64,000 bases of DNA from Oscillospiraceae bacterium (GTDB taxonomy: Bacteria; Bacillota; Clostridia; Oscillospirales; UBA929): contig WRCJ01000001.1 in assembly GCA_009784085.1 (NCBI GenBank), positions 66 to 64,065 on the forward strand, given 5' to 3'. The notes under the pieces were generated by a model. The model ran no database searches. It was not told where the DNA came from and worked only from the letters and a program-made list of their open reading frames with translations. The position numbers were made by a program, and so were the translations under genes. This document shows positions 31,652 to 59,273 of this stretch, one piece after another (within the stretch, counting starts at the first letter, position 1; each line of letters starts with the position of its first letter).

Positions 31652-33637
31652 ATGACGCTCATGACAAACTATGAGGAAAACTATATCGCGGCGCGGCGCC
31701 AAGCCCGTCGCTACCTGTCCGAACACGCGGGGGATTCGGGCCTTCTCCCCGTGCTTTCCACTGTCTTGGGAAGCATGCGGCCGGCTGGCGAATATCGGAT
31801 GGGGCTCTTCGAGATCCCGCTGAAAAAGGTAGTGGGCACCTGCTCGGCCAGCCGGCGCGATTCCTTCGCCGGCAACTTCATGCCGCTTTGGCCCCATAAA
31901 GGCGAACCCGCCCATAAATGGATGTCCGTCTATCGCAGCCATGATGACGAGGGCCTGAACCACCCCGTCAACGCATATGAGTACTTGGGATACTACTACA
32001 TCGAGGAGGGGCATAAGCGGGTAAGCGTCCTCAAAGCGAGCGGCGCATACTCGGTTTCCGCCGAAGTTATCCGTGTATTGCCCGCCTGGGACGCCGATGA
32101 CCACGATATCGCCGTGCTCTACGAGTACTACCGGCACAACCGCTCCCTTATCGTCCGCCACATGTGGTTTTCCAGGCCCGGCCGCCTGCGTTGGCTGTTT
32201 GCCGAAGCGGCGCGCACGGTGGGCGGCGACGACGGCCCCGGCAAACCCGGCGGCCCCGATAGTCCCGGCAAACCCGGCGGCGTCGACATCCCCGGCGGCC
32301 TCGGCAGGCCCATCAGCTCCATCAGTTCCATCAGCGCCAGTGGCCCCAACGACACCGACGGCGCCGACGAATGGCTGAACCATTGTTTCACGCTGTTTCG
32401 AAAACGCTATCACGCCGAGGGATTCGGCGAGTGGCCCATGACCACGGGCGACGCTTTTTACACCTATGTCCAGATCTTTGGCCTTCACGCCCAAACCGAC
32501 GACACTGCGCTGCGCGTCGAACTGACAGCCTGCGCCACGCAATGGCGGCTCGACCTCCTCCACCTGGGCGCCAGCGACCCGGAGGGCTGGGTCTCTTCCC
32601 TGTCCCACAAGGTCCCCAATATCATCGCGCCCAAAACGCGCCCCGCGGCGTACGCCTTCGCCTTCGAAGGCACGCCGCATGACAACGAAACCACGCATCT
32701 GCATAGCATCGCGCGGTACAGGCTGTCGGTACAAAACCCCGAACTCTACTTGCCGGCGCGAGAGGGGTTGCCTCCCGGCGACGAGGCGTGGCCGGCTTTC
32801 GAAGCCTTGTTGTCCGAAGGCCCGCGCTACCTGTTCGTCCCTTCGCCTACACACGCCCGCTTGGCTTGGCGGGCCGCCCTTCTGAGCCCGGATACCACCG
32901 TGGTGCACATGGGCGCGGAACATCCCCCGCCCCGCCGCCTGGCAACCTGTTGGGGCAACACACAAGAACCGGCTTTGCTGGCCGGCGCTTTGGCGGGCCT
33001 GTTGACGCGCACCGAGCGCATCGCCGTCGTCTCCTCGCCCGGCGAGCAGAACCTCTGCCAAGCGGTGGCCTTTGCCGCCGGGGCATCCCTAACGGCCCCG
33101 CGCGCGCAACTGCTGTACCACGAGCGGGACGGTATGTCTTGGGGGTGGGGGCAAATCCGGGCAGCCTTCGCCGTCCAGAAAGCCGATATCGCTTGGCTAC
33201 CGGCCACCGCAGACCCGTTGCAATCCCTCCGGACTTTTCCCGGCGTATACGCCCACCTCTGCCTCCTCTCGGAAGGCGACGCCTCTATCCTCGACATCGT
33301 GGCCGGCGCCGCTTGGCATTGGAGTGCCTTCTATCTGCTCTTGTCATCCGGGACCCCGCGCGACGGGATACCGAACGCGGAAGGCGCCACGAAAGAGAAC
33401 CTGCGCCTACGCCTGGGCATGTCCCATGGATTGGTCGATCTGCATCTGGCGCATGCCCTGCTGCCAGCCGGCGCGTTGCGCCTTCTCAGTATCCTCCGGC
33501 AGAGCATAGCGTCCGGGGAGCTGGACGCAACGGGCGCGGGCACGGCGGGTACGTCGGGCGTGGCGGGCGCGGCAGGTGCGGCGGGCGCGGCCCCGCCGGA
33601 CACGTTGCCGGACAACCTATCCGTGCTGTCTTTGTGA
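31652..33637 (+). CDS. Cytoplasmic protein with a ParB/Srx-like N-terminal region and a BMP/periplasmic-binding-protein-like C-terminal region (family usually annotated as BMP family or hypothetical)
   Basis: The N-terminus YEENYIAARRQARRYL..LFEIPLKKVVGTCSASRRDSFAGNFMPLWP...VNAYEYLGYYYIEEGHKRVSVLKASGAYSVSAEVIRVLP matches, from memory, a clostridial family. There is no signal peptide. It has Gly/Pro-rich and SSI tandem inserts. Confidence 0.4.
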   Translation: MTLMTNYEENYIAARRQARRYLSEHAGDSGLLPVLSTVLGSMRPAGEYRMGLFEIPLKKVVGTCSASRRDSFAGNFMPLWPHKGEPAHKWMSVYRSHDDEGLNHPVNAYEYLGYYYIEEGHKRVSVLKASGAYSVSAEVIRVLPAWDADDHDIAVLYEYYRHNRSLIVRHMWFSRPGRLRWLFAEAARTVGGDDGPGKPGGPDSPGKPGGVDIPGGLGRPISSISSISASGPNDTDGADEWLNHCFTLFRKRYHAEGFGEWPMTTGDAFYTYVQIFGLHAQTDDTALRVELTACATQWRLDLLHLGASDPEGWVSSLSHKVPNIIAPKTRPAAYAFAFEGTPHDNETTHLHSIARYRLSVQNPELYLPAREGLPPGDEAWPAFEALLSEGPRYLFVPSPTHARLAWRAALLSPDTTVVHMGAEHPPPRRLATCWGNTQEPALLAGALAGLLTRTERIAVVSSPGEQNLCQAVAFAAGASLTAPRAQLLYHERDGMSWGWGQIRAAFAVQKADIAWLPATADPLQSLRTFPGVYAHLCLLSEGDASILDIVAGAAWHWSAFYLLLSSGTPRDGIPNAEGATKENLRLRLGMSHGLVDLHLAHALLPAGALRLLSILRQSIASGELDATGAGTAGTSGVAGAAGAAGAAPPDTLPDNLSVLSL

Positions 33638-33673
33638 GTGTGCGTGTCCCAGACTATCGATTCAAATTATCGA

Positions 33674-35725
33674 CTACTGATAATCGAACCAATACTCCTC
33701 TCCTTCCCCGTAGTCATACAACGTATAAAAGGTTAGGCTGGATATGTCAATGAGATCGTAGCTCTCCGCTTCCCATCTATATATCATATCATCTGAAGTT
33801 TCAATTTTAATATACCAATAGCGGATTTCATCGTAATCAGAAAACCCCATCAGATCGTCGTCACCGGCCGGAATGAGATCCGGAAATTCCAGCCAGTCCG
33901 TGTCCCACTGCCCAGCCGCGTCGGGATCGGATCGAATAAACAATTGGAAATCCACTGCCGTGTTGTTATAGACTTCAAATGTCGCCTCCCCTTTGTATGG
34001 GGTATCATGCGTAGCCGATGGCGTGGGGGAGGGGATGTCGCCGAAGAACATCACTTCACAATTCGGGAGGGCGTTCTTCAAGGCGGATACTTGCGCCGGC
34101 GTTACGGGATTGCCGCTGAGATGCAAGAACACCAAATTCTGTAGCCCTTCCAGTGCGCTGAGGTCGCCAACATTGTTGAAGCTGAGATCCAGATACTTTA
34201 ACGTGTCAAGTCCGCTCAACGCGCTGATATCGCTGATGTGATTGTAGGAAACATTGAGATCCGTGACATGCGTGAGCAATCGCAGCTCGCTGATATCCGT
34301 CAGGTATTTGTCGGATAAGACCACTTCGTCCGCGTCTATTTCCACGTCTTCCCCCGCCACCGTGATCGTTGCCGACGTCGGCGACGGCGGTTGCGAGGGT
34401 GGCGCAAGAGAGGGCGTTGGCGGCACGAGGGACGGCGAAACAACGGGCGGCGGCGCAGAAGTGTCAGGCGGGCTCTCTTGTCTTGACATGCTGCTCACCG
34501 CGACGACGACCACAACAATCACCAGCGCGGCGACAGCCGCCGCGATGATACCTACCAGCCCTTTGTGCGTGCCGATCCAGCCGCCGGGGGGCTTATTGGC
34601 CTGCGTCGGCGCGGGCGCGGTCATATGAGGGGGCATAGGGGCATGGGACATAGGGGCATGGGACATGGGGGCGGTCATCGTGGCGGACATCGGCATGGGG
34701 GCGGGCATCGTGGCGGACATGTGGGTGGGCATGGGCGGCGCGGCCGGCACGTTGTACAACGCCATGTATAATTCCCGCGTGTCCCTAAAGCGGTTCTCCT
34801 GCAATACCGCCAAGCCTTTCATCAAGGCCGCTTCCTGTGCCGGGTGGATCGCGACGCCGTACATGGACGGGGGCCGCACCGTATCGTTGCGCAAACGCTC
34901 CAACGCCTCTTCGGGGACTACGCCCGTCAGCGCGTTGTACATGGTTGCGCACAGTGCGTACACGTCTGTCCACGGCCCTTGGGATCCCCTGGATCGATAT
35001 TGCTCCTCGGGGGCATAACCCGGCTTGAGCATAATGGACTTGCTTTTGTCGTTGCTGTCGGTGAACTCCCGCGCCGCCCCGAAGTCCAGTAATTTCACCG
35101 TCCCGATATCGGTAATCATGATGTTGTCCGGGCTGATATCGCGATGGATGATGCCGAGCCGATGCACCTCAGACAAGGATTCCATCAACGGCCTTATCGT
35201 GCCAAACACTTGTTCCGCAGGGAGCCTGCCGCCCATTTGGCTCAGATAGCGCTTCAAGGTCTGCCCTTCTATGAACTCCATGACAATGTAGGCCGTTCCA
35301 TTTTCCATGAAGAAGTCGGAGACCTCTACGATCCCCGGCCTGGATCGGAACTTGGCAAGGTTGCGCGCCTCTTCCACAAAACGCTCCCTGCCCCTTTGGA
35401 AAAAGACTTCCTGGTCGCCCGCATAAGACGAAACCGTATTGGTCGCCGTGACTTCCCTCGTCACAAACCCGCTGGGATAGTACTCCTTAATGGCAACCTT
35501 GACCTCCAGGTTCAGATCCTTCCCTATGTATGTGATGCCAAACCCGCCCTCGCCCAAGACCCGTCCGAGCAGATACTTTCCATTGAGTATCGTCCGCGGG
35601 CGCATCTGATGCAGGGGCGTGGGATGCTCCCTATCGTTGTATCCGCATGCGCCGCACTGCTGGGTGCCTCCTGGGAGGGCACCAAAACAGTTCATGCAAA
35701 GTAGATTTGGATCTTGGAACACCAT
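33674..35725 (-). CDS. Membrane Ser/Thr protein kinase: N-terminal zinc ribbon, Hanks kinase domain, Met/His/Pro-rich linker, one TM, extracellular leucine-rich repeats plus an unassigned C-terminal domain
   Basis: Contains CMNCFG..CGACGY, GEGGFGITYIG, VAIKEY, HRDISPDNIM, DFGAAR and GYAPEEQ. The TM is LVGIIAAAVAALVIVVVVVAV. LRRs: LTHVTDLNVSYNHISDISALSGLDTLKYLDLSFNNVGDLSALEGLQNLVFLHLSGN. Confidence 0.85.
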   Translation of the reverse strand: MVFQDPNLLCMNCFGALPGGTQQCGACGYNDREHPTPLHQMRPRTILNGKYLLGRVLGEGGFGITYIGKDLNLEVKVAIKEYYPSGFVTREVTATNTVSSYAGDQEVFFQRGRERFVEEARNLAKFRSRPGIVEVSDFFMENGTAYIVMEFIEGQTLKRYLSQMGGRLPAEQVFGTIRPLMESLSEVHRLGIIHRDISPDNIMITDIGTVKLLDFGAAREFTDSNDKSKSIMLKPGYAPEEQYRSRGSQGPWTDVYALCATMYNALTGVVPEEALERLRNDTVRPPSMYGVAIHPAQEAALMKGLAVLQENRFRDTRELYMALYNVPAAPPMPTHMSATMPAPMPMSATMTAPMSHAPMSHAPMPPHMTAPAPTQANKPPGGWIGTHKGLVGIIAAAVAALVIVVVVVAVSSMSRQESPPDTSAPPPVVSPSLVPPTPSLAPPSQPPSPTSATITVAGEDVEIDADEVVLSDKYLTDISELRLLTHVTDLNVSYNHISDISALSGLDTLKYLDLSFNNVGDLSALEGLQNLVFLHLSGNPVTPAQVSALKNALPNCEVMFFGDIPSPTPSATHDTPYKGEATFEVYNNTAVDFQLFIRSDPDAAGQWDTDWLEFPDLIPAGDDDLMGFSDYDEIRYWYIKIETSDDMIYRWEAESYDLIDISSLTFYTLYDYGEGEEYWFDYQ

Positions 35726-35766
35726 TCGCTACTCCTCCGTCTTCTCATTGCCATCTGAGCAAGCAT

Positions 35767-37254
35767 TTACTCTATCTCATAGAGATTGTCCTTGTTTCCG
35801 AGGTAGAATTTTAAGCGTGGCGCAATGGGGTACGGCTTGCCGGGGGTAAGCCTCGTGCCATTCTCCAGATACGTCCCATAACGGGAATTATTATCGATTA
35901 GGCGCAGCGCCCCCCCAATCCGGACGATCTCGCAGTGAATCGAGCTGATGCCGGGCGCCGTCGTGGGATAGACGACATGGCAGCGGGTGGCGTCCCTTCC
36001 CAGCGCGAGCTTGTCGCCATGCAACGGGAACAGCCTACCGGCAAACGGCCCCGTCAGGCCCCGCAGGCCCGTGGGCACGGGCGCGGATTGCGGCACGGGC
36101 GGCGGCACGGGTACGGGCGCGGATTGCGGCACGGGCGGCGGGACCGGCGCAGGTACAGGTTGCGGCATGGGCGGCGGGACGGGTACGGGCGGTGGGACGC
36201 GCAGGGGCGCGTCCCCTACAAGGGACGGGGGATGCGGCACGGGCGGCGGGACGCGCTGGGGCGCGTCCCCTGCAAGGGACGGGGGATGCGTGGCGGCGAC
36301 GGCGGCTTGCGGGAACGCCAAAACCTCCACGACGCCTTTTTTGATGATATAGAGCAAGATTATCCAAGCCGCGACGATCAGCAGGACATACTTAATGGCT
36401 TCCACGGGGGGAATCCCCAAAATGGAGAACGACAGTTTAATGTTCAGCAACTCGGATACATCCAGATTCCATATAAAGTGAAGCAAACATGCCGCGGCAA
36501 AGCAGAGCAAGAAACGTACGTTCACAAAATGGCGGGGGCGCAGCCGGCCGCGTCCCCGGGCAAGCATCAGCGCCCCGCCGTAAAGGGCCGCCCACACCGT
36601 GTGGGCGCCGAGGGCAAGCACCCCCCTGGCCAGTATGGTCTGCATCCCGTAGTTGTTCGTGTATCCCATGGTTTCTATGGCGGCAAAACCTGCGCCCACG
36701 GCCGCGCCGATCAGCACGCCATTGAGGGTGTATCGGTATTTCGGTTTGAGGACAAACAGGCAGATCACCAGCAATTTTGTGGGTTCTTCCGTAAGCGGCG
36801 CCAAAATTGCCTTCATATTGGGAATCATCCTGTTAAAGAGGAATGAGAAAATGATGGACAACGCACCACCGACGAAAATCATGCCAAGGATGAGGTAGAT
36901 CGGGATATTGCGCGGGATATTCATTTCCCACATCAGCAGGACAACGATGAGGGGCAAGACCAGCGCCCCGGCAAAAATCATCGGGATCCGGGCATACGTA
37001 CCCCCTCCGACCACGTCGAGGATGTACAAGGCCACGATAAACAGGAGGGCAAAGATCCCCACCCGGGAAAACAGCCACGGCTTTTTCCACTGAGAGACCA
37101 TTTGATCTTCCCGCGGCGTCGATAGGGACGTGCCGGCCAAAAACATGCTCGCCCCGTCTTCGCTTTTATGTTTCTTGAAAACGTCGGAAAAGATATCCCT
37201 CCATGTAATCTCCTGCTTGGCGGCTTTCCTGAAGAATATTGTGTTGCCTGCCAT
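35767..37254 (-). CDS. PrsW-family intramembrane protease fused to a C-terminal FHA domain
   Basis: The polytopic N-terminal half has an EExxK motif (LTEEPTKLLV), FAAIETMGY and GAHTVWAALYGG, as in PrsW. A Pro-rich linker follows. The C-terminal LALGRDATRCHVVYPTTAPGISSIHCEIV...DNNSRYGTYLNG is FHA-like. Confidence 0.7.
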   Translation of the reverse strand: MAGNTIFFRKAAKQEITWRDIFSDVFKKHKSEDGASMFLAGTSLSTPREDQMVSQWKKPWLFSRVGIFALLFIVALYILDVVGGGTYARIPMIFAGALVLPLIVVLLMWEMNIPRNIPIYLILGMIFVGGALSIIFSFLFNRMIPNMKAILAPLTEEPTKLLVICLFVLKPKYRYTLNGVLIGAAVGAGFAAIETMGYTNNYGMQTILARGVLALGAHTVWAALYGGALMLARGRGRLRPRHFVNVRFLLCFAAACLLHFIWNLDVSELLNIKLSFSILGIPPVEAIKYVLLIVAAWIILLYIIKKGVVEVLAFPQAAVAATHPPSLAGDAPQRVPPPVPHPPSLVGDAPLRVPPPVPVPPPMPQPVPAPVPPPVPQSAPVPVPPPVPQSAPVPTGLRGLTGPFAGRLFPLHGDKLALGRDATRCHVVYPTTAPGISSIHCEIVRIGGALRLIDNNSRYGTYLENGTRLTPGKPYPIAPRLKFYLGNKDNLYEIE

Positions 37255-37303
37255 GGTCCGCTCCTCCTCACATCGCCCTAGCCACTAGCCACTAGCCACT
37301 AGC

Positions 37304-38137
37304 CTACAATACCCTGAATTCGTTCTCAGGCGAAGCCAGATAGAAGCTGTCGCCGGGTTGCAACATGACGCCCTGATGGGGGTTGAGCTTTCTCCCGCCG
37401 GCCAAAAAGGTGCCATATGAGGAGCCTTTGTCCGTGAGCATGAGGCCGGCTGGCAACGCCGACAGTTCGCAGTGCAGGGAGCTGATTCCACTGGTATTGG
37501 CGGGGAATACGATCTGGCACCGCCTCGGATCCCGCCCAAAGGACAGCGATGTGCCAAGCGGGAAATTCGCGCCCGCAAAATGCCCTTTTGTACAGATAAG
37601 CTGGCTCCCCCCATGAGAAGCCACCATGGGACCTGTCACGAGCGGCGTCGTATAGGCGGGCGCAGGGGGCGTCGCCGGATAGGTAGGCGCCGGAGGGGGC
37701 GGGGGAGGCGTCGCCGCGTACGGGGCGGCCTGGGGCGGCGGGGCTTGGGGCGGTGGCGCCGCCGCATACGGGGCGGCCGCCGGAGCCGCTTGGCCTTGCT
37801 TTTTTCCTTTTTGGCTGAGCATCACAATGAGGATAATGAGCGCCAAACCCAGCACCGCCACGAGGATCACCCACCAGTATTCGGATAAGAAATCCGACTG
37901 CGGCGGGGGTTCCTCTGTCACCGGGGGGGGGCCGTCCGTTTCGTCCCCGCTCGGGTCAAAGGGCGGCGGCGGCGGGTCGTCCGGATCCTGGGAAGGTTGC
38001 GGGGGCGGCTTCGGGTTGTCGGCTAGCAACACCGGCGTCCCAGCCCTCGCATAAGCCACGCCCATCGCAACAGGCGTCAGGCATATGGCAACAGCAAGGA
38101 GAACAATAACGATCTTTTTCATACGGCTCACTCTCAC
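37304..38137 (-). CDS. Single-pass membrane protein with signal peptide, Pro-rich ecto-segment, TM, Pro/Ala-rich linker and a cytoplasmic FHA domain
   Basis: MKKIVIVLLAVAICLTPVAMGVAYA; TM WWVILVAVLGLALIILIVML; FHA SFGRDPRRCQIVFPANTSGISSLHCEL...DKGSSYGTFL. It has a GTGA overlap with the PP2C stop. Confidence 0.7.
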   Translation of the reverse strand: MRVSRMKKIVIVLLAVAICLTPVAMGVAYARAGTPVLLADNPKPPPQPSQDPDDPPPPPFDPSGDETDGPPPVTEEPPPQSDFLSEYWWVILVAVLGLALIILIVMLSQKGKKQGQAAPAAAPYAAAPPPQAPPPQAAPYAATPPPPPPAPTYPATPPAPAYTTPLVTGPMVASHGGSQLICTKGHFAGANFPLGTSLSFGRDPRRCQIVFPANTSGISSLHCELSALPAGLMLTDKGSSYGTFLAGGRKLNPHQGVMLQPGDSFYLASPENEFRVL

Positions 38138-39297
38138 AATATCTTTAGTATGATTGCGGTAAAATTGTCTTGATACGGCATAGCCTTATCCAGCACTGCT
38201 TTTTCAAGCAGAAACGCGCTTTCGTGTGGGTCGGCCGCCATGGTGGCCATGATTTCCTCATCGGACAGCGCATTGAAAACGCCATCCGACATGAGCAGCA
38301 CCCGATCATGGGGCAACAATTGCACGGGTTGGTTATTTCGGTCGATTTTCTCTATGTTCTCCATCCCCAAATAGCTGGTGAGCGCTTTGCGCTGCGGGTC
38401 GCCCAAGGCCGCTTCCCAGGTGATCGCCCCGTGCGCGGCCCGCTCGTCCAGTTCCACGGCGTATGTGTGCTCGCGGTTAATCTGGAGCAATGCGCCGCCC
38501 CGAATCAAGTATATCCTGCTGTCGCCGACCGATATCCAATACATCTTCCCGGCATGGACAATCACCGCCACTACGGTGGCGCCGCCTTTTTCGTAGCCGG
38601 CCATGTTGAGCAGGATTTGATCGTTGGTAGAAATCAGCATTCTTAAGAGGAATTCTTCCGGGGTCTGGGCGACTTCGTCTTCGATAAACATATTCAACAT
38701 GATTTGCGTCGCCATATTGCTGATGGCGGCGCCCCCGGGCAGCCCTCCCATACCGTCGGCCATGACGCAGAACACGCCCTTCCTCTCGAATAGTTCCCTG
38801 TTGGAAATATCCGATATGGCGAAGCTGTCCTGCTGGCTATCCCGGCTTCCGATATGGTGCGCGTTGCCAATCATGACCTGGCCAAACATGGCCGGCGCGG
38901 CTACCGTGGGTACGACAAGCGTTGGCGCGGGTGCCATTGGCGCGGCGGCCGGTGGCATAGCTATTGTAGGCGCAGCGGCTGCCGTTGGCGCTACCGCCAT
39001 TGGCGCGGCGGCCGTTGGCAAAGCTACCGTCGGCGCGACCGCCGGCACGGCTACCGTGGGCGCGACGCCTGTTGGCGTGGCTGCCGGCGGCACGGCCATT
39101 GTCGGTACAGCCGCCGGCGGCACGGATCCTGTCGGCGCGGGTCCTGTTGTCACAGGGATGCCCGACGTGACCATGACCGTCTTGGTCATGGCCGCGCCTT
39201 CCTTATCCGGGGCTTCCGCGGCCGGTGGCGCCATGACGAGCGGCGCCACCACCGCCTTCGCTTCGGATTTTTCTTTCTTTTTCTTTTTATTAAACAT
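38134..39297 (-). CDS. PP2C-family Ser/Thr protein phosphatase with an Ala/Pro/Thr/Val-rich N-terminal region
   Basis: GSRDSQQDSF, VMADGMGG, VGDSRIYL and LLMSDGVFNAL. The start is taken at ATG 39297 (MFNKKKKKEK); GTG 39312 is an alternative. Confidence 0.82.
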   Translation of the reverse strand: MFNKKKKKEKSEAKAVVAPLVMAPPAAEAPDKEGAAMTKTVMVTSGIPVTTGPAPTGSVPPAAVPTMAVPPAATPTGVAPTVAVPAVAPTVALPTAAAPMAVAPTAAAAPTIAMPPAAAPMAPAPTLVVPTVAAPAMFGQVMIGNAHHIGSRDSQQDSFAISDISNRELFERKGVFCVMADGMGGLPGGAAISNMATQIMLNMFIEDEVAQTPEEFLLRMLISTNDQILLNMAGYEKGGATVVAVIVHAGKMYWISVGDSRIYLIRGGALLQINREHTYAVELDERAAHGAITWEAALGDPQRKALTSYLGMENIEKIDRNNQPVQLLPHDRVLLMSDGVFNALSDEEIMATMAADPHESAFLLEKAVLDKAMPYQDNFTAIILKIL

Positions 39298-39312
39298 ACC
39301 TCTTACAACCAC

Positions 39313-39912
39313 TTACAACCACGGAAACATTTCGCCGCGCAATTTAATAAAAACAATCTTCGTTTGGCCGATTTCAATGATGTCGTAGGGCTTCAGCTCG
39401 ATGGTGGTCAAGACGGCTTTGTCATTCACCCGGACAATGCCCCTTCCGCCACCCGGCGAAAAATAGAAGGCTTTATCCCGCGTATCGCAGGCGACGGTCG
39501 CGTGGTTATCGCGGGAAACGGTGTCGTCGCCCCGGATGCAGACATCCATCTTCTCGCTTCGCCCAATAAAGTTTTTTTCCGCGTGGAGCCGGTAGTCGCG
39601 GCCTATGTCCATTCCATCCAGGATGACAAGCCACCCCACCACCGGGTCGAAGCCCATATCTTTTTTGAACACCGACTGGGTACGGCCACTGTCGAACGCA
39701 TTCGCCGTGTCCTTCGCCGTATCTACAGAGCGCGTACGATCGTAGCCGTCGTAGGCTGGCGCCGCCGACGCCGCCGAAGCCGCCGGCGCGGCTACTGGGA
39801 CAGTCGACGCGCCCGGTGCGGCAGCAGCGTTTGCGGTGTCGCAATACGGGCATATGGCATGGATCGATGCGTCATAGTAGTGGCCGCCCCCCGCGCATTG
39901 TTTCATTTCCAT
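39313..39912 (-). CDS. Zinc-ribbon plus FHA domain protein
   Basis: MEMKQCAGGGHYYDASIHAICPYCD, then an Ala-rich linker, then the FHA region GRDYRLHAEKNFIGRSEKMDVCIRGDDTVSRDNHATVACD. RBS AAGGGAG lies 8 nt upstream of ATG 39912. Confidence 0.72.
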   Translation of the reverse strand: MEMKQCAGGGHYYDASIHAICPYCDTANAAAAPGASTVPVAAPAASAASAAPAYDGYDRTRSVDTAKDTANAFDSGRTQSVFKKDMGFDPVVGWLVILDGMDIGRDYRLHAEKNFIGRSEKMDVCIRGDDTVSRDNHATVACDTRDKAFYFSPGGGRGIVRVNDKAVLTTIELKPYDIIEIGQTKIVFIKLRGEMFPWL

Positions 39913-39981
39913 TTCGTTATCTCCCTTCAGGTGATTAATCAACGATATTTTATCATTGCTCCGGGGGTTTTTGCAACATGT

Positions 39982-41907
39982 TTATTTCCAATATGCGCAT
40001 AGATTGATAAGTTCCCCGGGCGCCAGGTTGGGAAGGGTAAATGATTCTCCCGCCTGCACCACTACATAGGCCCAATCATCCGGCTTGGAGGCCCTTGAGT
40101 AGTATCCCAGCTCGTCCCCGCGCCTGCACAACCAGCTGCGCCTGTTTACGCTGTACACGTACCAACCGCCAAAGGTGTTCGGCGCCCCGTCTTTGATAAA
40201 TTCGTTTGCCTTGATGGGAAGGGGCGATCCAACCTGCGCGGTTACCGGCGCCATTGTTCCGTACCCGCCCATGGCGTTGTATTTGACGGAAAACTCGCCC
40301 CCCGTTTCCCAAACGGCGTAAAGGGTTAGCGTGTCGTTGGCCTCGGGGCTGAAGCCGACTGTCTTCCATGCGTCTTTGAATACTTTCTTTGCCGCGCCGG
40401 TGGGCTGGCCGCCATCTGCAAAGTACTCCATTTCGCCGTTGTTGTCGTAAATCCACATCCCAAGTTTTTCGCTATAGATATTCCAACCCGCAAAGGCGTA
40501 CCCTTCCCTGGTAAACTGGTTGTTGGGCAGGCGCCATTCGACGCCATCGACGGCCGATATCTCCGTCATTTGCCCCATGCCCCCGTTTGCGTTAAACAAC
40601 AGGGTGTAGACATCGTCGCCGCTCCATACCGCTACCAGCGTAACGACGTCGTTATCTACTGTCCCGAGCACGTCGACGGTTGCCCCATCTGCCAGGTATG
40701 CGTTTTCCCAACCTGCGGGCTGCATCCCATCCGGGGAATAACCGTACTCGACGCCGTTCGTGTACAACCATCCGGCGTTTTTCGCGCTGTAGGCCGCCCA
40801 TCCGTAAAACTCTGCCGAACCGTTCGTAAACTGGTTTTGCGGCAAGACCAGGCTTTCCCCGACTTCGCTCATCACCTGCGCCATTTCCCCGACGCCTCCG
40901 TTGGGGTTGAAGTTGATGAGGAACGTCTCGCTCTTCGGCGGTTCCGGCGACGGGGTAGGCTTCGGCGTTGGCGTTGGGTCGTCGGGGTCCGGCGTCGGGT
41001 CGTCTGGCCCCGGCGTCGGGTCGTTGGGCGGCGGCGTTGGGTCGTCTGGCGGATCAGGATCATCCGGATCTTCGACCGACCCTACGGTGTAGGCGTACCC
41101 CCTTTGAATGGCGATCTCATAGGAAACATAGGCAAATCCATGATCTGCCCAGTCATCCCCCCAGGAGTTGATGAACTTGAAGGCTTGGATATCGTCGTCA
41201 AACCCCACCAGGCATATGGCGTGTCCCCCGAGCATATTGCCTGTCTGTACGTTATATATGTAATTGTTGGTATTGATACTGTAGAAAGACTCGTAGATAT
41301 CGATGCCCACGACCACCCCGTAGTTTTCGTAGATGGCTTGCTTGATCTGGTTCGTCCCATCGATGGTAGCGAATTCCGAAATGCGGTAATTGTACGCGCT
41401 ATCCCGTTGCGCGCTGTTGGGCTGCGTGAGATAATCATTATCCGAATACGGCATTTCGTTCCAAGTACAAACACCTTGCTCCTGCAATAGTTCCATGGCA
41501 TCGGAGATGTAGGAGCCCCTGTCTTCGCCCCCGTTGATCTGGTTGTACACATAGGCGGGGCTGAACAGGTTGTCTTTGTCATAGTTGCCGTTCCCGCCTA
41601 CCATGTTGAGGCAGCTCCTCAAGGCGTAGGCCGTAGCCCAAGCGACACAACTCCCCTGGCCCCCCTGATCGCCGGGGGGAGGGAACATGTCGGCGTTGTC
41701 GAACTTCTTGGGCAGCGCCGCCGTGTCCACCGACATCGTGAACATTTTGGCGGCGACCTTTTCCGGGTCGTCGTCTAAAAACCCTAAACCATAGCTAGCC
41801 CATTTGTTGTTGGGGTCTTGACTTGCGTCGTCCGTGCAGCCGGCAAAGAGCGCGAAGAACATGCAAAATACCAGCAACAATGCCCCTAAAGACCGTTTCT
41901 TTTTCAT
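39982..41907 (-). CDS. Lipoprotein papain-like (C1 family) cysteine peptidase with a Pro/Asp/Thr-rich linker and three Listeria-Bacteroides (InlB B-repeat / Flg_new) domains
   Basis: Lipobox LFAGC. Catalytic contexts are QGGQGSCVAWA (Cys), GGHAICLVGFDD (His) and INSWGDDW (Asn). There are three repeats of the form F..NANGG.G.M......G....LP.N.FTR.GY.F.GW......LYAVW. Confidence 0.8.
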   Translation of the reverse strand: MKKKRSLGALLLVFCMFFALFAGCTDDASQDPNNKWASYGLGFLDDDPEKVAAKMFTMSVDTAALPKKFDNADMFPPPGDQGGQGSCVAWATAYALRSCLNMVGGNGNYDKDNLFSPAYVYNQINGGEDRGSYISDAMELLQEQGVCTWNEMPYSDNDYLTQPNSAQRDSAYNYRISEFATIDGTNQIKQAIYENYGVVVGIDIYESFYSINTNNYIYNVQTGNMLGGHAICLVGFDDDIQAFKFINSWGDDWADHGFAYVSYEIAIQRGYAYTVGSVEDPDDPDPPDDPTPPPNDPTPGPDDPTPDPDDPTPTPKPTPSPEPPKSETFLINFNPNGGVGEMAQVMSEVGESLVLPQNQFTNGSAEFYGWAAYSAKNAGWLYTNGVEYGYSPDGMQPAGWENAYLADGATVDVLGTVDNDVVTLVAVWSGDDVYTLLFNANGGMGQMTEISAVDGVEWRLPNNQFTREGYAFAGWNIYSEKLGMWIYDNNGEMEYFADGGQPTGAAKKVFKDAWKTVGFSPEANDTLTLYAVWETGGEFSVKYNAMGGYGTMAPVTAQVGSPLPIKANEFIKDGAPNTFGGWYVYSVNRRSWLCRRGDELGYYSRASKPDDWAYVVVQAGESFTLPNLAPGELINLCAYWK

Positions 41908-41972
41908 TTTTTTTGCTCCTCCTATTCTTTATTAATATAATACCGCACCAAAACGGCGAGTCCCTCTCTCAT

Positions 41973-42001
41973 ATTGTACAATGTTTTTACGAAAAATTCA
42001 A
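41973..42001 (-). promoter_or_regulatory. Promoter candidate for the peptidase/FHA/kinase operon (TTGAAT, 17 nt spacer, TACAAT)
   Basis: On the minus strand, TTGAAT is the complement of 41996-42001 and TACAAT the complement of 41973-41978, with a 17-nt spacer. Confidence 0.5.
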
Positions 42002-42114
42002 CTGTTTTTTAGTGATTTTCTAATTTTTCCACGTCGGCGCCACAACGATACCGCGTCGGCGCCACGGTCGACAACACGGGCGGCGACCCGGGCGGCGACG
42101 CAACGTCCCTGCGG

Positions 42115-42143
42115 TTGACAAGGCGGCCCTTATGGGGTAAACT
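42115..42143 (+). promoter_or_regulatory. Promoter candidate (TTGACA, 17 nt spacer, TAAACT)
   Basis: ttgaca at 42115-42120 and taaact at 42138-42143, upstream of the MBL-fold gene. Confidence 0.5.
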
Positions 42144-42188
42144 GTTCTCGGATACAACCATTTCTATCAGCAAGGGGATAAAAACCAT

Positions 42189-43010
42189 ATGCGTATACGC
42201 TATCTCGGCACCGGAGCCTCGGAAGGCTTCCCCGGCGTGTTTTGCCAGTGCCCGACCTGCGTGGAAGCGCGCTTGCATGGCGGGCGCAACATTCGCCGCC
42301 GCTCGGCCATGCTCATCGACGGCGTTTTGCTGGTCGACTTGCCCCCGGACTTGCTCTCGCAATCCTTCGAGTGGAAAATCGACATGGGCGCCATTCGCTA
42401 TTTGTTGGTGACGCATACCCACCACGACCACTTTTACGCAGCCGAACTGGCCAACCTGCGCGCGCCGTACACGCTGTCGTCCACGCGGGAAAAGATGGTC
42501 GTGCTTGGTAGCGTGGCCGTATGGGAACGCATGGTAGAAACCCTTGGCGCCGAGGAACTGATACGGCTTGAGGATGTGCTGTCGTATCATGAGCTCAAGC
42601 TATTCGAGCCGGACACCATCGGTCCCTATACCATCACGCCCCTCAAAGCCCGCCACTGCCCCGGCGCGTTCATCTATCTGATTGAAAAGGATGGCCGCGT
42701 CCTGCTGTATGGAAACGACACAGGGTTTTTCCCGGAGGAAACATGGGATTACCTGGCGGGCCGGCGCGTGGACATGGTCAGCATGGATTGCACGAACCCC
42801 CTCCATGCGGACACGCCCAATCATATGACGCTGGAAGACAATGTCACGGTGAAGAGGCGCATGTTCCAGCAAAAGAGCGCCACCGCGCATACGCGATACA
42901 TGGCGACGCATTTTTCCCACACGTCGGGCCTACTTCACCGCCCGATGGAGGATCGCCTGCGCCTGTACGGCGTTGGCATGGCCTATGACGGCCTGGAAGT
43001 TGAGATATGA
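42189..43010 (+). CDS. MBL-fold metallo-hydrolase (PhnP/beta-CASP-unrelated small type)
   Basis: GTGASEGFPGVFC..C..C, and the metal motif LLVTHTHHDHF. Confidence 0.7.
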   Translation: MRIRYLGTGASEGFPGVFCQCPTCVEARLHGGRNIRRRSAMLIDGVLLVDLPPDLLSQSFEWKIDMGAIRYLLVTHTHHDHFYAAELANLRAPYTLSSTREKMVVLGSVAVWERMVETLGAEELIRLEDVLSYHELKLFEPDTIGPYTITPLKARHCPGAFIYLIEKDGRVLLYGNDTGFFPEETWDYLAGRRVDMVSMDCTNPLHADTPNHMTLEDNVTVKRRMFQQKSATAHTRYMATHFSHTSGLLHRPMEDRLRLYGVGMAYDGLEVEI

Positions 43011-49152: not shown

Positions 49153-49277
49153 TTTTTACATTTCCTTTCCCATATCATAATGCATTGCCATTGTATCATG
49201 TTTTTCCTTTTTTCACAACAATATTTCTCAGCCCCTCCCCGGCGCGCACGTCACGTGAGGCGGCATACTCGCCCAAC

Positions 49278-49303
49278 GGCGCGTCAAGGATGCCGCGCCC
49301 TAC
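49278..49303 (-). repeat. Single REP-like type-A variant core upstream of dnaA
   Basis: ggcgcgtcaaggatgccgcgccctac, with one extra base relative to the core. Confidence 0.7.
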
Positions 49304-49442
49304 GAACTACTCGTCGCATACGCGACGGCGCAAATTCTCCTTTACACCAAGCCGTAAATATGATATAAATATGCCATCGACCCTGTTTTTTCTTTGTCAT
49401 AATCTTTACCATAATAAGGCTCGAAACGATGGAGGATTTTTC

Positions 49443-50750
49443 ATGTTTTCCTATGAAGATATTTGGAACCACGTGATCTCGGAGTTGGCGCGCGCAACTT
49501 CCCAGACCGTTCTGCGCGCATGGTTCGACGGTATGAAAATCCTCCGGATCTCTGAAGACACAGCCTTTTTTTACACCCCTGCCAAATTTAAGCGCGATAT
49601 GATCCTCAACCGATACGCGGATCGTATCAAGGTAATCCTCAGCGAACTCCTCAGCGTCCCCATGTCGGTGGAAATCATCACGGAGGAAGAACTGGAGGAT
49701 TTCACGCGGCAGGAGACCCTTCAGGAGGATAAGGAGGATTATAAGTCCTATACCTTCGATCGCTTTGTGGTTGGTTCTTCCAACAAGTTCGCGCATGCCG
49801 CCGCGCAGGCCGTATCCGACAACCCCGCGGGCGCTTACAACCCCCTTTTCATCTACGGTACCTCCGGCCTGGGGAAAACGCATCTCCTCTATGCCATCAT
49901 GACGCGCGTCATGGAAAAGTTCCCCCATTTCAAGGTGCAATATGTCACCGCCGAGACGTTCACCCGTCAGTTGGTCACCGCCATACGCCTGGGGAAAAAC
50001 TATGAATTCCATGATAATTACCGACGCCTCGATATGTTGCTCGTGGACGACATCCATTTTATCGCCGGCAAAGAGTTTTCCCAAGAGGAATTTTTCCATA
50101 CCTTCAACACCCTGCATGAAGCCGGTAGACAAATTATCCTAGCCTCCGATCGACCGCCCAAAGACGTGAGCCGCCTGGAAGAACGGCTGCGTACCCGTTT
50201 TGAATGGGGCCTCATCGCGGACATTCAGCCCCCGGATTATGAAACCAGGCTCGCTATCGTGAACGTGAAGGCCTTCCGATTGGGCCTGTCCCTCCCCGAA
50301 GAGGTATCCGATTACATTGCCGGCACGATCTCGTCGAACATACGCCAATTGGAGGGCGTCGTCAAAAAGATGATGGCGTACCGGGATCTTGTCAACAAAC
50401 CCATCAGCATGGAAACCGCCGAACAAGCCATCTCGGAGATTGTCCGCGAAAGCCCGGGCCTCTCGCCAACGCCCACCCTGAACCTCCAGGAAGTCTGTGA
50501 CTTTTACAACTTGGACTCCGCCCAAGTCTTAGGGGCAAACCGGCGTTCCGACGTGGTACGGGCGCGCCAGCTCACCATGTACCTCTGCCGGTTGCTGACG
50601 ACAAAATCCCTGCATGACATTGGGAAATTCATCAACCGCGATCATACCACGGTGGGGCATGGCTGCGAAAAGGTGGAGGCGCTCAGGGTCTCCGACCCCA
50701 TGATTTCTAAGGATATCCAATCGATGATTGAAAATATTCGCAACAAATAA
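49443..50750 (+). CDS. dnaA: Chromosomal replication initiator protein DnaA
   Basis: MFSYEDIWNHV..., Walker A GTSGLGKTHL, LLVDDIHF, and the C-terminal DNA-binding GKFINRDHTTVGH. The track ORF start 49185 is rejected because it reads through a REP and the promoter region. Confidence 0.93.
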   Translation: MFSYEDIWNHVISELARATSQTVLRAWFDGMKILRISEDTAFFYTPAKFKRDMILNRYADRIKVILSELLSVPMSVEIITEEELEDFTRQETLQEDKEDYKSYTFDRFVVGSSNKFAHAAAQAVSDNPAGAYNPLFIYGTSGLGKTHLLYAIMTRVMEKFPHFKVQYVTAETFTRQLVTAIRLGKNYEFHDNYRRLDMLLVDDIHFIAGKEFSQEEFFHTFNTLHEAGRQIILASDRPPKDVSRLEERLRTRFEWGLIADIQPPDYETRLAIVNVKAFRLGLSLPEEVSDYIAGTISSNIRQLEGVVKKMMAYRDLVNKPISMETAEQAISEIVRESPGLSPTPTLNLQEVCDFYNLDSAQVLGANRRSDVVRARQLTMYLCRLLTTKSLHDIGKFINRDHTTVGHGCEKVEALRVSDPMISKDIQSMIENIRNK

Positions 50751-50771
50751 ATAAGGCTTCATCCCAAGGCT

Positions 50772-50935
50772 TTATCCCCCGCGTTTTTTATCCCCCGCAC
50801 GTTGGGGATTGTGGAAGCATGCCGCTCCCCTTGCTTTTTTCTTCTGCGTTTGCCACGCGAAATCCCCCTATTTATCCCCCAGGCCTGTTGGATGCGCATG
50901 TCCAGCCGTGCAACTGTTCCCGCCCGTTATCCCCC
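50772..50935 (+). promoter_or_regulatory. Candidate oriC repeat cluster in the dnaA-dnaN spacer: four direct TTATCCCCC nonamers plus related ATCCCC sites
   Basis: ttatccccc at 50772-50780, 50788-50796, 50872-50880 and 50927-50935. aaatccccc at 50861-50869. The inverted ggggatt at 50804-50810. An AT-rich stretch at 50955-51000 precedes dnaN. Confidence 0.5.
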
Positions 50936-51007
50936 ATCCCACGGCCTACCGCTACCTTGGCTATCGTATTAACTAATCTATTCTATTCTTAGAAAGAGAT
51001 GATCAAC

Positions 51008-52129
51008 ATGAAGTTTTCCTGTGACAAAGCCCCCCTGCTTTCCTCCATCCTCACCGTTTCCCGCGCCGTTTCGTCCAGAAGTAGCATCGCCGCCTTAGAG
51101 GGGATCCTCATCGTAGCGGATACCAAGCTCATACTCTACGGATACAACATGGAGATTGGTATCCGGGAAGAGTTGGAGGCGGATATTGAAGTGCCAGGCA
51201 GCGTTGTGATTGTTTCGCGCTTGCTGACGGATATCATCCGACGCTTGCCCGACGATAAGGTCGTGTTTTCCCTTTCGGATAAAATGGTCATGCATATCGA
51301 GTGCGGCCGCTCCATTTATGACATCTCGGCATGTTATGATGGGCAGGCGTTTCCGAATATGCCATCTGTCCCGGAGGAAGAATGCGCGTTGATGACAAAA
51401 CGGATGCTCAAGGAAATGATCCAAGGAACGGTATTCGCCGTTTCCGAGAACGACGCGAAAAAGATCCATATGGGATCGAAGTTCGTGTGGGAGAACGGCT
51501 GCCTTTCCGTCGTTTCTATCGATGGTTTCCGCCTGGCCATGCGCAGGCAAGCGTATACGGGGACGGCGCCACAAGAAGACTTTGTCGTGCCGGGGGCGGC
51601 TTTGCGCGAAGTGGAAAAGCTCCTGTCGGACGGGGAGGAAAACATACGCATCGTATTGGGCAGCAGGCATATTATGTTTCAAATCGATACGATAACGCTG
51701 ACGACAAGACTGCTCGAAGGGGAATTTATCAACTATATGGCTACGATCCCCAAGGAACAGCCGGTATCCGTGACGCTGAATACGCAAGAATTTGCCTCAT
51801 GCATCGAGCGCGTCAGTTTGCTCATCAATGAGAAAATCAAGAACCCCTTGCGCCTCTACTTGGAAGAAAACCGCATTGTCGTTTCCTGCACGACCGCGCT
51901 GGGGGCGGCGCAGGATGATTGCCCGGCGACGGTAGTCGGGTTGCCGGAGGATAACCCAGAGATGGAAATAGGGTTTAACCACCGGTACTTGCTGGAAGCG
52001 TTGAATTCCCTGAAAGAACAGCAATGCGTCATTCGGTTTACCAACCCGTTGTCCCCTTGTATCATCGTGCCCCAGGAGGGCGATGCGTTCATGCACATGA
52101 TCCTGCCGGTGAGGCTCAGGAGCGAATAG
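51008..52129 (+). CDS. dnaN: DNA polymerase III beta sliding clamp
   Basis: MKFSCDKAPLLSSILTVSRAV..., a length of about 373 aa, and its position after dnaA. Confidence 0.93.
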   Translation: MKFSCDKAPLLSSILTVSRAVSSRSSIAALEGILIVADTKLILYGYNMEIGIREELEADIEVPGSVVIVSRLLTDIIRRLPDDKVVFSLSDKMVMHIECGRSIYDISACYDGQAFPNMPSVPEEECALMTKRMLKEMIQGTVFAVSENDAKKIHMGSKFVWENGCLSVVSIDGFRLAMRRQAYTGTAPQEDFVVPGAALREVEKLLSDGEENIRIVLGSRHIMFQIDTITLTTRLLEGEFINYMATIPKEQPVSVTLNTQEFASCIERVSLLINEKIKNPLRLYLEENRIVVSCTTALGAAQDDCPATVVGLPEDNPEMEIGFNHRYLLEALNSLKEQQCVIRFTNPLSPCIIVPQEGDAFMHMILPVRLRSE

Positions 52130-52137
52130 ACATAGGC

Positions 52138-53349: not shown

Positions 53350-53590
53350 CACAGTCGTACCCCACAAATCGATTATCGGAGTATTTGACTTGGAGATTAC
53401 CTCCCATTCCCGGCAAACGCGGGCATTTTTGTCTGAAGCGCAAAAAAAGGGGCAAGTCAAGGCGGTGATCGACGAGTTGCCGGCATCCTTTGTCCTCTGC
53501 GCCATGGACGGGAAGACGACGGTGTATTTGTCGCCTATCTCGGCGGCGACGCTCGGCAAAAGGGCGAGGGAAAATATCCTGGAAGATTGA
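53327..53590 (+). CDS. remB: DUF370 protein (RemB/YaaB-like)
   Basis: MYLHLGHNTVVPHKSIIGVFDL...VYLSPISAATLGKRA, and its conserved position between recF and gyrB. Confidence 0.78.
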   Translation: MYLHLGHNTVVPHKSIIGVFDLEITSHSRQTRAFLSEAQKKGQVKAVIDELPASFVLCAMDGKTTVYLSPISAATLGKRARENILED

Positions 53591-55607
<2,017 letters not shown>

Positions 55608-55677
55608 TTTGATAAAGTTATAACATTACGGAATCAGCGTTGCCGGTCGGGGTACCGTTACCGGTTGGGGGTTTTTT

Positions 55678-58143: not shown

Positions 58144-58181
58144 GCTGTAGGCGATATTTTACATGATAGGTGGGGACGGGT

Positions 58182-58790: not shown

Positions 58791-59218
58791 AACACATCAC
58801 GCTCTACACGGACGGGGCTTGTTCCGGGAACCCCGGGCCGGGGGGCTGGGCCGCTATTTTGCGGTATGGGGAACATGAGAGGGAACTCTCCGGCGGCGAG
58901 CCACATACCACCAACAACCGCATGGAACTGACCGCCGTCATCGAGGGGCTGCGGGCGCTCAAGGAACCTTGCGAAGTGCGCGTGTATTCCGACTCCAAAT
59001 ACGTCGTGGACGGCATGTCCCTGGGCTGGGCGGCCAAATGGCGGGCGCGCGGCTGGAAAAAGGCCGACAAGTCGCCCGCCCTGAACCCCGACCTGTGGGG
59101 GACGATGCTGGATTTATGCCAGTTGCACAACGTGTCGTTTACCTGGGTGCGCGGACACGCCGACAACGCCTACAACAACCGTTGCGACAAACTGGCCGTG
59201 GGCGCCATACCCCAGTAA
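58787..59218 (+). CDS. rnhA: Ribonuclease HI
   Basis: ITLYTDGACSGNPGPGGWAAIL...TTNNRMELTAVIEGL...SDSKYV...W.WVRGHA. Confidence 0.9.
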   Translation: MKHITLYTDGACSGNPGPGGWAAILRYGEHERELSGGEPHTTNNRMELTAVIEGLRALKEPCEVRVYSDSKYVVDGMSLGWAAKWRARGWKKADKSPALNPDLWGTMLDLCQLHNVSFTWVRGHADNAYNNRCDKLAVGAIPQ

Positions 59219-59273
59219 GGGGTGTCATGCCCATATATGTGGCATCGCGAATGTTCGAGGTGAATTTGAATTC

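Follow-up and report, generated by a model that had tools for sequence, protein, structure and literature searches.

What does a bacterium control with a gene cluster in which a receptor Ser/Thr kinase and a Ser/Thr phosphatase stand beside three forkhead-associated (FHA) proteins, one of them fused to an intramembrane protease? The question is raised by a 64,000-nt stretch of DNA from a gut Oscillospiraceae bacterium (GCA_009784085.1, WRCJ01000001.1 positions 66-64,065), hereafter called the window, which was analysed over its whole length. Between 33674 and 42001 it contains six open reading frames (ORFs), all on the minus strand and arranged head-to-tail. From the first to the last gene in the direction of reading, they are:

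39982..41907, minus strand: papain-family (C1) cysteine peptidase, 641 aa (Pfam Peptidase_C1 1.9e-16, C-terminal Flg_new 2.5e-10)
39313..39942, minus strand: cytoplasmic Zn-ribbon-FHA protein, 209-aa ORF (Pfam FHA 6.3e-05, Yop-YscD_cpl 1.5e-07)
38134..39312, minus strand: PP2C (PPM) Ser/Thr phosphatase, 392 aa (Pfam PP2C_2 1.2e-11)
37304..38137, minus strand: single-pass membrane FHA protein, 277 aa (Pfam FHA 7e-10)
35767..37254, minus strand: PrsW-type glutamic intramembrane protease with a Pro-rich tandem-repeat linker and a C-terminal cytoplasmic FHA domain (PrsW-FHA), 495 aa (PrsW-protease 8.5e-22, FHA 1.2e-10)
33674..35725, minus strand: receptor Ser/Thr kinase with leucine-rich repeats (LRRs), 683 aa (Pfam Pkinase 1.9e-29, LRR_4 2.2e-11, LRR_8 2.5e-10)

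An earlier note on this DNA had proposed these six domain assignments, and each of them was recovered by Pfam above the gathering score. The catalytic motifs of the C1 peptidase, the phosphatase, PrsW and the kinase read as intact, and the Gly-Arg and Ser-x-x-His phosphothreonine-binding motifs are present in all three FHA domains. With the longest-ORF starts the intergenic gaps are 39, 0, -4, 49 and 41 nt, while with the starts of a public gene caller they are 69, 15, 11, 49 and 41 nt, so that the single-strand arrangement with spacings of -4 to 69 nt given previously fits both sets. Gene calls on a public Oscillospiraceae contig, from a metagenome-assembled genome (MAG) with an identical PrsW-FHA protein, comprise the same six genes.

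The cluster is real, conserved and uncharacterised, although its parts and its logic are familiar. We propose that the region 33674-39942, which begins with the Zn-ribbon-FHA gene and ends with that of the LRR kinase, is a five-gene threonine-phosphorylation module that controls FHA-tethered membrane effectors, a reading to which we give an even chance of being right. It builds on the gene content, on the intact motifs, on a topology consistent with cytoplasmic FHA domains and on co-conservation, whereas the assignment of the writer to its targets, and whether the protease would be activated or inhibited, are what we infer from them.

In order to see how far the arrangement extends beyond this genome, 18 diverse PrsW-FHA proteins were aligned, and a single genome of each bacterial species was scanned with this alignment. 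The scan gave 421 loci encoding relatives, of which the best 80 were taken with 10-kb flanks; their ORFs were searched with the domains of the window and with domains from annotated relatives, and to be counted below a gene had to lie on the same strand and no more than 10 kb away. Among the 52 loci with a fused PrsW-FHA gene, PP2C was found in 47, a kinase in 46, the Zn-ribbon-FHA gene in 45 and all three in 43. Where PrsW is not fused to FHA (Listeria, the Bacillus group, Selenomonas and others), 27 of 28 loci had neither PP2C nor kinase nor Zn-ribbon-FHA gene, and the 28th (L026), scored as unfused, turned out to be a PrsW-FHA locus cut at a contig end. The full set is thus absent from all 27 truly unfused loci, a contrast with a Fisher p of ~1e-13 that is only indicative, the loci being related and not independent. 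The co-occurrence of PrsW-FHA with kinase and phosphatase genes, and with it the idea of a self-contained kinase, phosphatase and FHA unit that includes PrsW-FHA, is therefore borne out by co-conservation on one strand. Dozens of other genomes show the arrangement again, so chance does not explain it.

Carriers of the cluster belong to the Lachnospiraceae, Oscillospiraceae, Ruminococcaceae, Acutalibacteraceae, Selenomonadales and Clostridiaceae, together with one Desulfobacter MAG. A full-library profile search gave 804 representatives of 50%-identity clusters at E <= 1e-30, and about 120 of the best 150 representatives cover the whole PrsW-FHA profile, including the FHA domain. From the Pfam-annotated neighbourhoods of four relatives and the domain map, the following consensus order of the clostridial cluster was drawn:

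1, divergent histidine kinase and NarL-like response regulator (13/52 loci)
2, one to four kinases
3, Zn-ribbon-FHA gene
4, PP2C
5, Trypsin_2, transmembrane segment and FHA in one protein (20/52)
6, PrsW-FHA
7, kinase, sometimes fused to RDD-FHA (RDD in 8/52)
8, second PP2C, of the PP2C_2 family (38/52)
9, vWA, transmembrane segment and FHA in one protein (19/52)

The membrane-bound FHA proteins of this list have one plan in common, in which an extracytoplasmic or intramembrane module is followed by a transmembrane segment and a cytoplasmic FHA domain. The window has no second PP2C, no vWA-FHA, no RDD-FHA, no histidine kinase and response regulator pair and no trypsin domain. Its composition is not a unique design: the window cluster is a reduced member of a larger and widespread clostridial cluster. 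The two-component pair, made of a multi-pass divergent histidine kinase of ~480 aa and a NarL/GerE-type response regulator of ~195 aa, stands upstream of the first kinase in L002, L005, L006, L008, L012, L013, L019, L022, L024, L034, L049, L082, L083 and L085, and may be a transcriptional arm of the system. One Lachnospiraceae locus, L091 (CP175961.1, 1796046-1816624), has the order FHA, Zn-ribbon-FHA, PP2C, kinase-FHA, PP2C_2, vWA-FHA, kinase (YARHG) and kinase (SH3_3).

The kinase of the window has an N-terminal Zn-ribbon (CxxC...CxxC), followed by the kinase domain, a Pro/Met/Thr-rich linker, a transmembrane helix (residues 389-412), internalin-like extracellular LRRs (~465-552) and a 120-residue C-terminal domain. 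The VAIK, HRD, DFG and APE motifs are present, and the catalytic loop reads HRDISPDN. Its best solved relative is PpkA (5hnv; E 1.1e-45, 159.7 bits), well ahead of StkP and PknB (92-94 bits), and in PpkA, too, the canonical Lys of the catalytic loop is replaced by Ser (HRDISLDN). This Ser variant, HRD-x-S-x-x-N (HRD[IV]SP[DE]N), was found in 90 of the 102 kinases encoded in the related loci L001-L081. Because of the common Ser loop and because PpkA is the closest structure, the kinases of the cluster are assigned to one PpkA-like clade and not to a PknB-like one; a literature search for 'HRDISPDN' returned no paper. The closest related locus, with a 54% identical PrsW-FHA protein, ends with two LRR kinases, and other kinases of the cluster bear BspA-type LRR, DUF5050 beta-propeller or unassigned ectodomains. 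An LRR receptor kinase is therefore a recurrent feature of the family. The last 120 residues of the window kinase (~561-683, encoded at 33677-34042) form an acidic, aromatic-rich C-terminal ectodomain with no Pfam match and no counterpart among the kinases of related loci, and a single-sequence model of the ectodomain was unusable, with a predicted local distance difference test (pLDDT) of 45.

The phosphatase of the cluster, PP2C, bears a 150-residue Ala/Pro/Thr-rich N-terminal extension and the metal-binding motifs DGMGG, GDSR, SDG and DN. It scores 120 bits to the NCBIfam Stp1/IreP family, below the equivalog cut-off of 230, and it is nearest to tPphA-type (cyanobacterial) phosphatases at 80 bits, followed by PppA (59) and PstP (50).

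These two enzymes recall the PpkA/PppA/Fha1 set of the type VI secretion systems (T6SS) of Pseudomonas, Serratia and Agrobacterium, where a receptor kinase with an extracytoplasmic sensor is also encoded with a PP2C eraser and an FHA reader, and where the output, as proposed for the window module, is the post-translational control of a membrane complex. Both kinases have the HRDISxDN loop. The window cluster differs in its Gram-positive host, in a phosphatase that is closer to the tPphA type than to PppA, and in FHA readers fused to effectors of their own, an intramembrane protease in the window and trypsin-like, vWA or RDD modules in relatives. By analogy, the module could regulate some machine of the envelope that is encoded elsewhere, for instance a secretion system, a pilus or a cell-wall synthase. 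Besides the PpkA-like kinase, it speaks for this explanation that new type VII secretion system (T7SS) variants of Clostridia are often found with kinases, PPM phosphatases, FHA and vWA proteins (PMC11217815). But no EssC/FtsK-type or TsxC ATPase, WXG100, YukD or T6SS gene was found in the window or within 10 kb in six annotated related loci. Moreover, the FHA proteins carry enzymatic modules of their own. We consider an unlinked envelope machine to be quite unlikely as the target.

The other resemblance, put forward in the earlier note, is with the actinobacterial fhaA-fhaB-pstP-rodA-pbpA-pknA-pknB growth and division cluster, of which the locus would be the clostridial counterpart. FHA, PP2C and a transmembrane Hanks kinase are indeed found in one operon in both cases, and one FHA protein is membrane-anchored, like FhaB/FipA. 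For this copy, the position also speaks in favour: dnaA (49185-50750) is followed by dnaN, recF, gyrB and gyrA (dnaA to gyrA, 49185-58143), the minimum of the cumulative GC skew falls near 50-52 kb, in the dnaA region, and the cluster lies 7-15 kb from dnaA, so that its proximity to the origin, as previously stated, is true for this genome. In two complete chromosomes, related loci lie at 4.91 of 6.35 Mb (Clostridium asparagiforme) and at 3.49 of 5.80 Mb, as counted from the start of the record; the former is thus far from the record start. The RodA/PbpA pair and the PASTA sensor are absent, no PASTA, FtsW/RodA or transpeptidase match being obtained in the six window proteins. The FhaB/FipA equivalog gives 22.5, 18.6 and 18.6 bits with the three FHA proteins (cut-off 125) and the PknB_PASTA_kin model 167.9 bits with the kinase (cut-off 450), and the kinase belongs to another clade, being PpkA-like. 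The clostridial cluster is moreover patchy and accessory, with variable copy number and content. The resemblance is therefore generic, and a common function in growth and division appears very improbable. Since the defining features of both systems were looked for and not found, the locus is a member of neither the PpkA/PppA/Fha1 system nor the actinobacterial cluster.

Which protein could the kinase modify? The start of the Zn-ribbon-FHA protein is probably the ATG at 39912, giving 199 aa. Its orthologues have in common a C-x3-G-H...C-P-x-C ribbon and a conserved C-terminal motif, and in all 43 aligned orthologues a Thr is invariant, in a T-x-x-V/L context (Val in most orthologues at the +3 position, Leu in some) about 20 residues before the FHA core. 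In the window it is T88 of the ORF, within RTQSVF. T-x-x-V/L is the sequence context preferred by FHA domains, and a Thr motif N-terminal to the protein's own FHA domain is the arrangement of the GarA/OdhI phospho-switch, the motif of GarA being ETTSVF. Small, soluble and with its Thr shortly before the FHA domain, the Zn-ribbon-FHA protein resembles GarA and OdhI; unlike them it has an N-terminal Zn-ribbon, and no sequence relation beyond the FHA fold was detected. The invariant Thr appears, from this conservation, to be the best candidate substrate of the kinase. The family counts at least 850 clusters at 90% identity, and one of its genes (L090) is an orphan.

These observations also feed the main rival to our reading, according to which the Zn-ribbon-FHA protein is itself the real output, in the manner of ArnA or GarA: its phosphorylation state would control an unlinked cytoplasmic target (an enzyme, for example, or the expression of genes), with the membrane FHA proteins, PrsW-FHA included, serving as accessory docking or turnover factors. 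In favour of this, the Zn-ribbon-FHA and PP2C genes form the most constant pair of the cluster and are also found together where PrsW-FHA is missing. The Zn-ribbon-FHA gene was in one case an orphan, its family is larger than that of PrsW-FHA, and the protein bears the invariant Thr switch motif. There is also a precedent in Sulfolobus, where ArnA has the same Zn-ribbon and FHA architecture and is a regulator with a vWA partner, ArnB, and where FHA, vWA, kinases (ArnC/ArnD) and a phosphatase are associated (PMC6509490). ArnA and ArnB are nonetheless archaeal and cytoplasmic and regulate archaellum expression, and the clostridial vWA, in contrast to ArnB, is the extracytoplasmic domain of a membrane FHA protein that is absent from the window. 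Against this rival, profile searches detected no DNA-binding domain in the Zn-ribbon-FHA protein, and the protein gave no match at E <= 0.01 with solved structures, ArnA included. It would also leave unexplained why protease, vWA and RDD modules are consistently fused to FHA in the same operon. On balance it seems unlikely.

In our preferred reading, where PrsW-FHA and the membrane FHA protein are effectors, the evidence on these two proteins is central. The single-pass protein consists of a signal peptide, a short Pro-rich ectodomain, a transmembrane helix and a cytoplasmic FHA domain. With residues 253-421 of the Trypsin_2-FHA protein of L084, the closest relative, it has 40% identity (E 1e-49), and the alignment covers only the linker, the transmembrane helix and the FHA domain, the protease domain being absent. 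Because only this part aligns, the protein is classed as a trypsin-less orthologue of the trypsin-FHA proteins that relatives encode in the same place.

The assignment of the protease is supported by a match to Pfam PF13367 at residues 145-272 (78.1 bits, cut-off 23.5). The PrsW motifs E156-E157-x-x-K160, F190-x3-E194 and H259-x3-N263, as well as G419-R420 and S437/H440 of the FHA domain, are invariant in the 18 diverse homologues. In the AlphaFold model (pLDDT 83), short N-terminal helices are followed by eight long helices (residues 61-322) and a C-terminal beta-sandwich. The sandwich matched solved FHA domains, among them those of ArnA, DgcB, Rv1747, FhaA and GarA, with Foldseek TM-scores up to 0.85, normalised on target length, and no solved PrsW structure was among the structure matches. 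The best PDB match of the PrsW-FHA profile was the FHA domain of ArnA (7.7e-08). The FHA domain is predicted to lie in the cytoplasm, because eight helices follow a cytoplasmic N-terminal region and because relatives carry N-terminal Zn-ribbons.

The fusion as such is not new, since PrsW fused to FHA and Zn-ribbon was mentioned in one sentence, as predicted 'signaling peptidases', by Zhang et al. in 2012 (PMC3482391). The window protein and B. subtilis PrsW belong to the same Pfam family and have the EExxK, FxxxE and HxxxN motifs in common, the model of the window protein showing eight helices. With only 34 bits to the PrsW equivalog model NF033739 (cut-off 225), the window PrsW nevertheless falls, by its profile scores, in a subfamily distinct from that of B. 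subtilis, and no sigma/anti-sigma pair is linked to it. In Bacilli (P0071-P0077 of Listeria and Alteribacter; L052, L054), PrsW of the same subfamily is fused to an N-terminal GYF_2 or Zn-ribbon and not to a C-terminal FHA domain. The subfamily has a common N-terminal motif, DVF..VFKKH..AGT..TP..W.KPWLF. Its 'AGT..TP' part was considered as a phospho-acceptor for the protein's own FHA domain and rejected, as it also occurs in unfused paralogues with GYF_2 or Zn-ribbon.

Effectors whose activity or assembly depends on phosphothreonine binding by an FHA domain of their own have been described, as in Bdellovibrio DgcB (FHA-GGDEF) and M. tuberculosis Rv1747 (FHA-ABC transporter), both found among the FHA fold matches; here the effector differs in being an intramembrane protease, and the literature yielded no example of a characterised FHA-controlled intramembrane protease. 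The DRA0331-DRA0334 operon of Deinococcus radiodurans (bioRxiv 10.64898/2026.01.23.701218) likewise combines vWA, a Ser/Thr kinase, FHA and PP2C in a push-pull regulation, but it encodes a KI-FHA-PP2C fusion and no protease, and serves cytoplasmic DNA-damage signalling. For the cluster itself, the literature searches, from which subscription journals were mostly outside coverage, found no description and no experiment, and they returned no characterised system of this composition, in agreement with what had been stated before.

Does the first gene, encoding the C1 peptidase, belong to the module? The Peptidase_C1 match (61.3 bits, cut-off 20.7) is accompanied by the catalytic residues Q81, C87, H229 and N247, and a lipobox (LFAGC, Cys24) makes it a probable lipoprotein. 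Its C-terminal Flg_new region corresponds to Listeria-Bacteroides repeats. In none of the 52 related PrsW-FHA loci does such a gene adjoin the cluster. In five of them, all from Lachnospiraceae, a C1 gene lies within 10 kb, ~3.3 kb downstream, and in the one of these five that is Pfam-annotated housekeeping genes, among them those of D-tyrosyl-tRNA deacylase and RlmL, separate it from the cluster. The proteins closest to the window peptidase (40-43% identity) are encoded beside Zn-ribbon membrane proteins and a chagasin-type inhibitor, and no FHA, kinase or PP2C gene was present in three such neighbourhoods. The nearest C1-Flg_new homologues often have an N-terminal Zn-ribbon, and their small clusters with Zn-ribbon membrane proteins and a chagasin-family (Inhibitor_I42) protein are seen in L086 (6832-12652), L088 and L089. 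The small Zn-ribbon proteins encoded downstream of the homologous peptidases were compared with the Zn-ribbon-FHA protein as possible kin and found to be unrelated.

The transcription signals of the region were examined as well, and two promoter-like sites bear on the peptidase gene:

41973..42001, minus strand: promoter-like site TTGAAT-17-TACAAT, a 9/12 consensus match, upstream of the C1 peptidase gene
39947..39976, minus strand: internal promoter-like site TTGCAA-18-TAAAAT with TG before the -10 (extended -10), in the 69-nt gap between the C1 peptidase and Zn-ribbon-FHA genes

The first, which precedes an AGGAGG ribosome-binding site and the ATG of the peptidase at 41907, had been described as a good promoter. 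The site exists, but a 9/12 match is weak given the shuffle background, the region containing 10 promoter-like sites, about twice as many as shuffled sequences (4.8 +/- 2.4). The internal site scores equally, and downstream of it come an AGGGAG ribosome-binding site and then the ATG at 39912; this suggests that the five-gene core could be transcribed independently. Since no terminator-like hairpin was found between the peptidase and Zn-ribbon-FHA genes, read-through transcription of the peptidase gene together with the core may also occur.

The earlier note had combined these elements in a six-gene model, where the surface C1 peptidase processes the cue sensed by the LRRs and PrsW-FHA cleaves a membrane anti-sigma factor. 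In its favour, the peptidase gene precedes the core on one strand at a distance of 69 nt, in a gap free of terminator-like hairpins. The trypsin ectodomain of the fourth gene has been lost in this lineage, and in principle a secreted protease from the adjoining gene could take its place. In B. subtilis, moreover, PrsW is the site-1 protease that cleaves the anti-sigma factor RsiW (PMC3482391). The lack of adjacency in the 52 relatives, the occurrence of homologues in other contexts and the promoter-like site in the gap stand against a role of the peptidase, and for these reasons it was rejected as a member of the cluster and of the signalling unit; on the simplest reading it is probably a lineage-specific neighbour. 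As for the anti-sigma substrate, no extracytoplasmic function (ECF) sigma or anti-sigma gene was found in five Pfam-annotated PrsW-FHA neighbourhoods (linkage is not needed for such a function), and the low score to the PrsW equivalog points the same way. As a whole, the six-gene model is decidedly unlikely.

In relatives, 2-5 paralogous kinases that vary in their ectodomains stand in tandem, which suggests a last explanation, namely a system of diversifying kinases for defence against phages or conflict between bacteria. The kinase domain of the window does match the PD-T4-6 and Mad6 kinase models of PADLOC. These matches are nonetheless of a generic kinase-domain kind, the FHA and PrsW proteins match no defence model, and PP2C matches one marginal candidate model (PDC-M21C, E 1e-4). 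The sensors are extracellular, and abortive-infection effectors such as a toxin or a nuclease are absent. Such a function is extremely improbable.

Taken together, these results lead us back to the five-gene threonine-phosphorylation module, which would work as follows. A ligand would bind the extracellular LRRs of the PpkA-like receptor kinase and activate it. The kinase would then phosphorylate itself and, as conservation suggests, the invariant Thr of the Zn-ribbon-FHA protein. The cytoplasmic FHA domains of the membrane proteins would read these phosphothreonines, and their binding would recruit, cluster or un-gate the effectors, which in the window are the PrsW-type protease and a membrane anchor, and to which relatives add a trypsin-like ectoprotease, a vWA ectodomain protein and an RDD protein. 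Proteolysis by PrsW-FHA would thereby become signal-dependent, and PP2C, by its family function, would reset the system.

Several points weigh against this proposal. The catalytic-loop Lys is replaced by Ser in the window kinase, a change common to PpkA, and the activity of the kinase is a prediction; PpkA is an active kinase despite this Ser. The Thr-rich juxtamembrane linker was considered as an FHA docking site and rejected: with 11% Thr it is rich in the window kinase, but across 61 cluster kinases the linkers contain 6.8% Thr against 5.6% in the kinase domains, and there is no family-wide enrichment. No candidate substrate of the protease, anti-sigma factor or other, is encoded in the annotated neighbourhoods of the cluster. 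PrsW-FHA is one optional FHA-tethered module of a wider system, because the L091 cluster has no PrsW-FHA. The operon status of the cluster is deduced from spacing and synteny, and the window copy could be a decaying remnant, though its ORFs and motifs are intact.

A more specific form of the proposal would be that Hanks-type kinase signalling gates intramembrane proteolysis directly, with FHA switching PrsW on or off. More broadly, phosphothreonine-FHA contacts would assemble or activate changeable extracytoplasmic modules (trypsin-like, vWA, PrsW), as an inside-out, integrin-like device which, in gut anaerobes, would be run by receptor-kinase arrays whose LRR or beta-propeller sensors have diversified. 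We put this forward tentatively, as a possibility that is more doubtful than probable.

Other features of the region were recorded. An Rfam scan of 33000-42700 found no RNA elements, and the DNA repeats of this interval are coding low-complexity linkers. The linkers of PrsW-FHA (36074-36270), PP2C (38890-39140), the C1 peptidase (40970-41050) and the kinase (34610-34735) are encoded by 15-54-nt tandem repeats; for example, a 54-nt duplication gives HPPSLAGDAPQRVPPPVP twice. These repeats suggest that linker length changes rapidly. The genes around the cluster and further along the window include:

31652-33637, plus strand: 661-aa ORF, convergent with the kinase gene across a 36-nt gap, with a Gly/Pro-rich collagen-like middle stretch and Ala/Gly-rich C-terminal repeats, and no Pfam or PADLOC match
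42189-43010, plus strand: metallo-beta-lactamase-fold protein (Lactamase_B_2), divergent from the peptidase gene, to which the precomputed annotation adds the Anti-Pycsar Apyc1 family
59274-61343, plus strand: class B penicillin-binding protein after gyrA, within an origin region that spans 49185-61343 (plus strand)
62711-64000, plus strand: trypsin-like ORF leaving the window end, with a weak match (1e-09) to the trypsin-FHA ectodomain query, probably an HtrA-type protease unrelated to the cluster

What, then, does the locus mean? The window copy is a minimal form of the cluster, with the five core genes and, probably as an unrelated neighbour, the peptidase. Regulated intramembrane proteolysis and Ser/Thr phosphorylation are both major routes of bacterial transmembrane signalling, and they are possibly joined here. 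To our knowledge no direct mechanistic link between them is known in bacteria, and none was found in the literature. The cluster offers a testable candidate for such a link, namely a protease with a built-in phosphothreonine reader, whose probable writer and eraser are encoded beside it. For experiments, the invariant Thr in the Zn-ribbon-FHA protein is a specific residue to start from. The family is large and centred on the Lachnospiraceae and Oscillospiraceae, which dominate among gut anaerobes and in which little is known of signal transduction, and the LRR, BspA-LRR and beta-propeller ectodomains of its kinases could sense host or microbial surface ligands.

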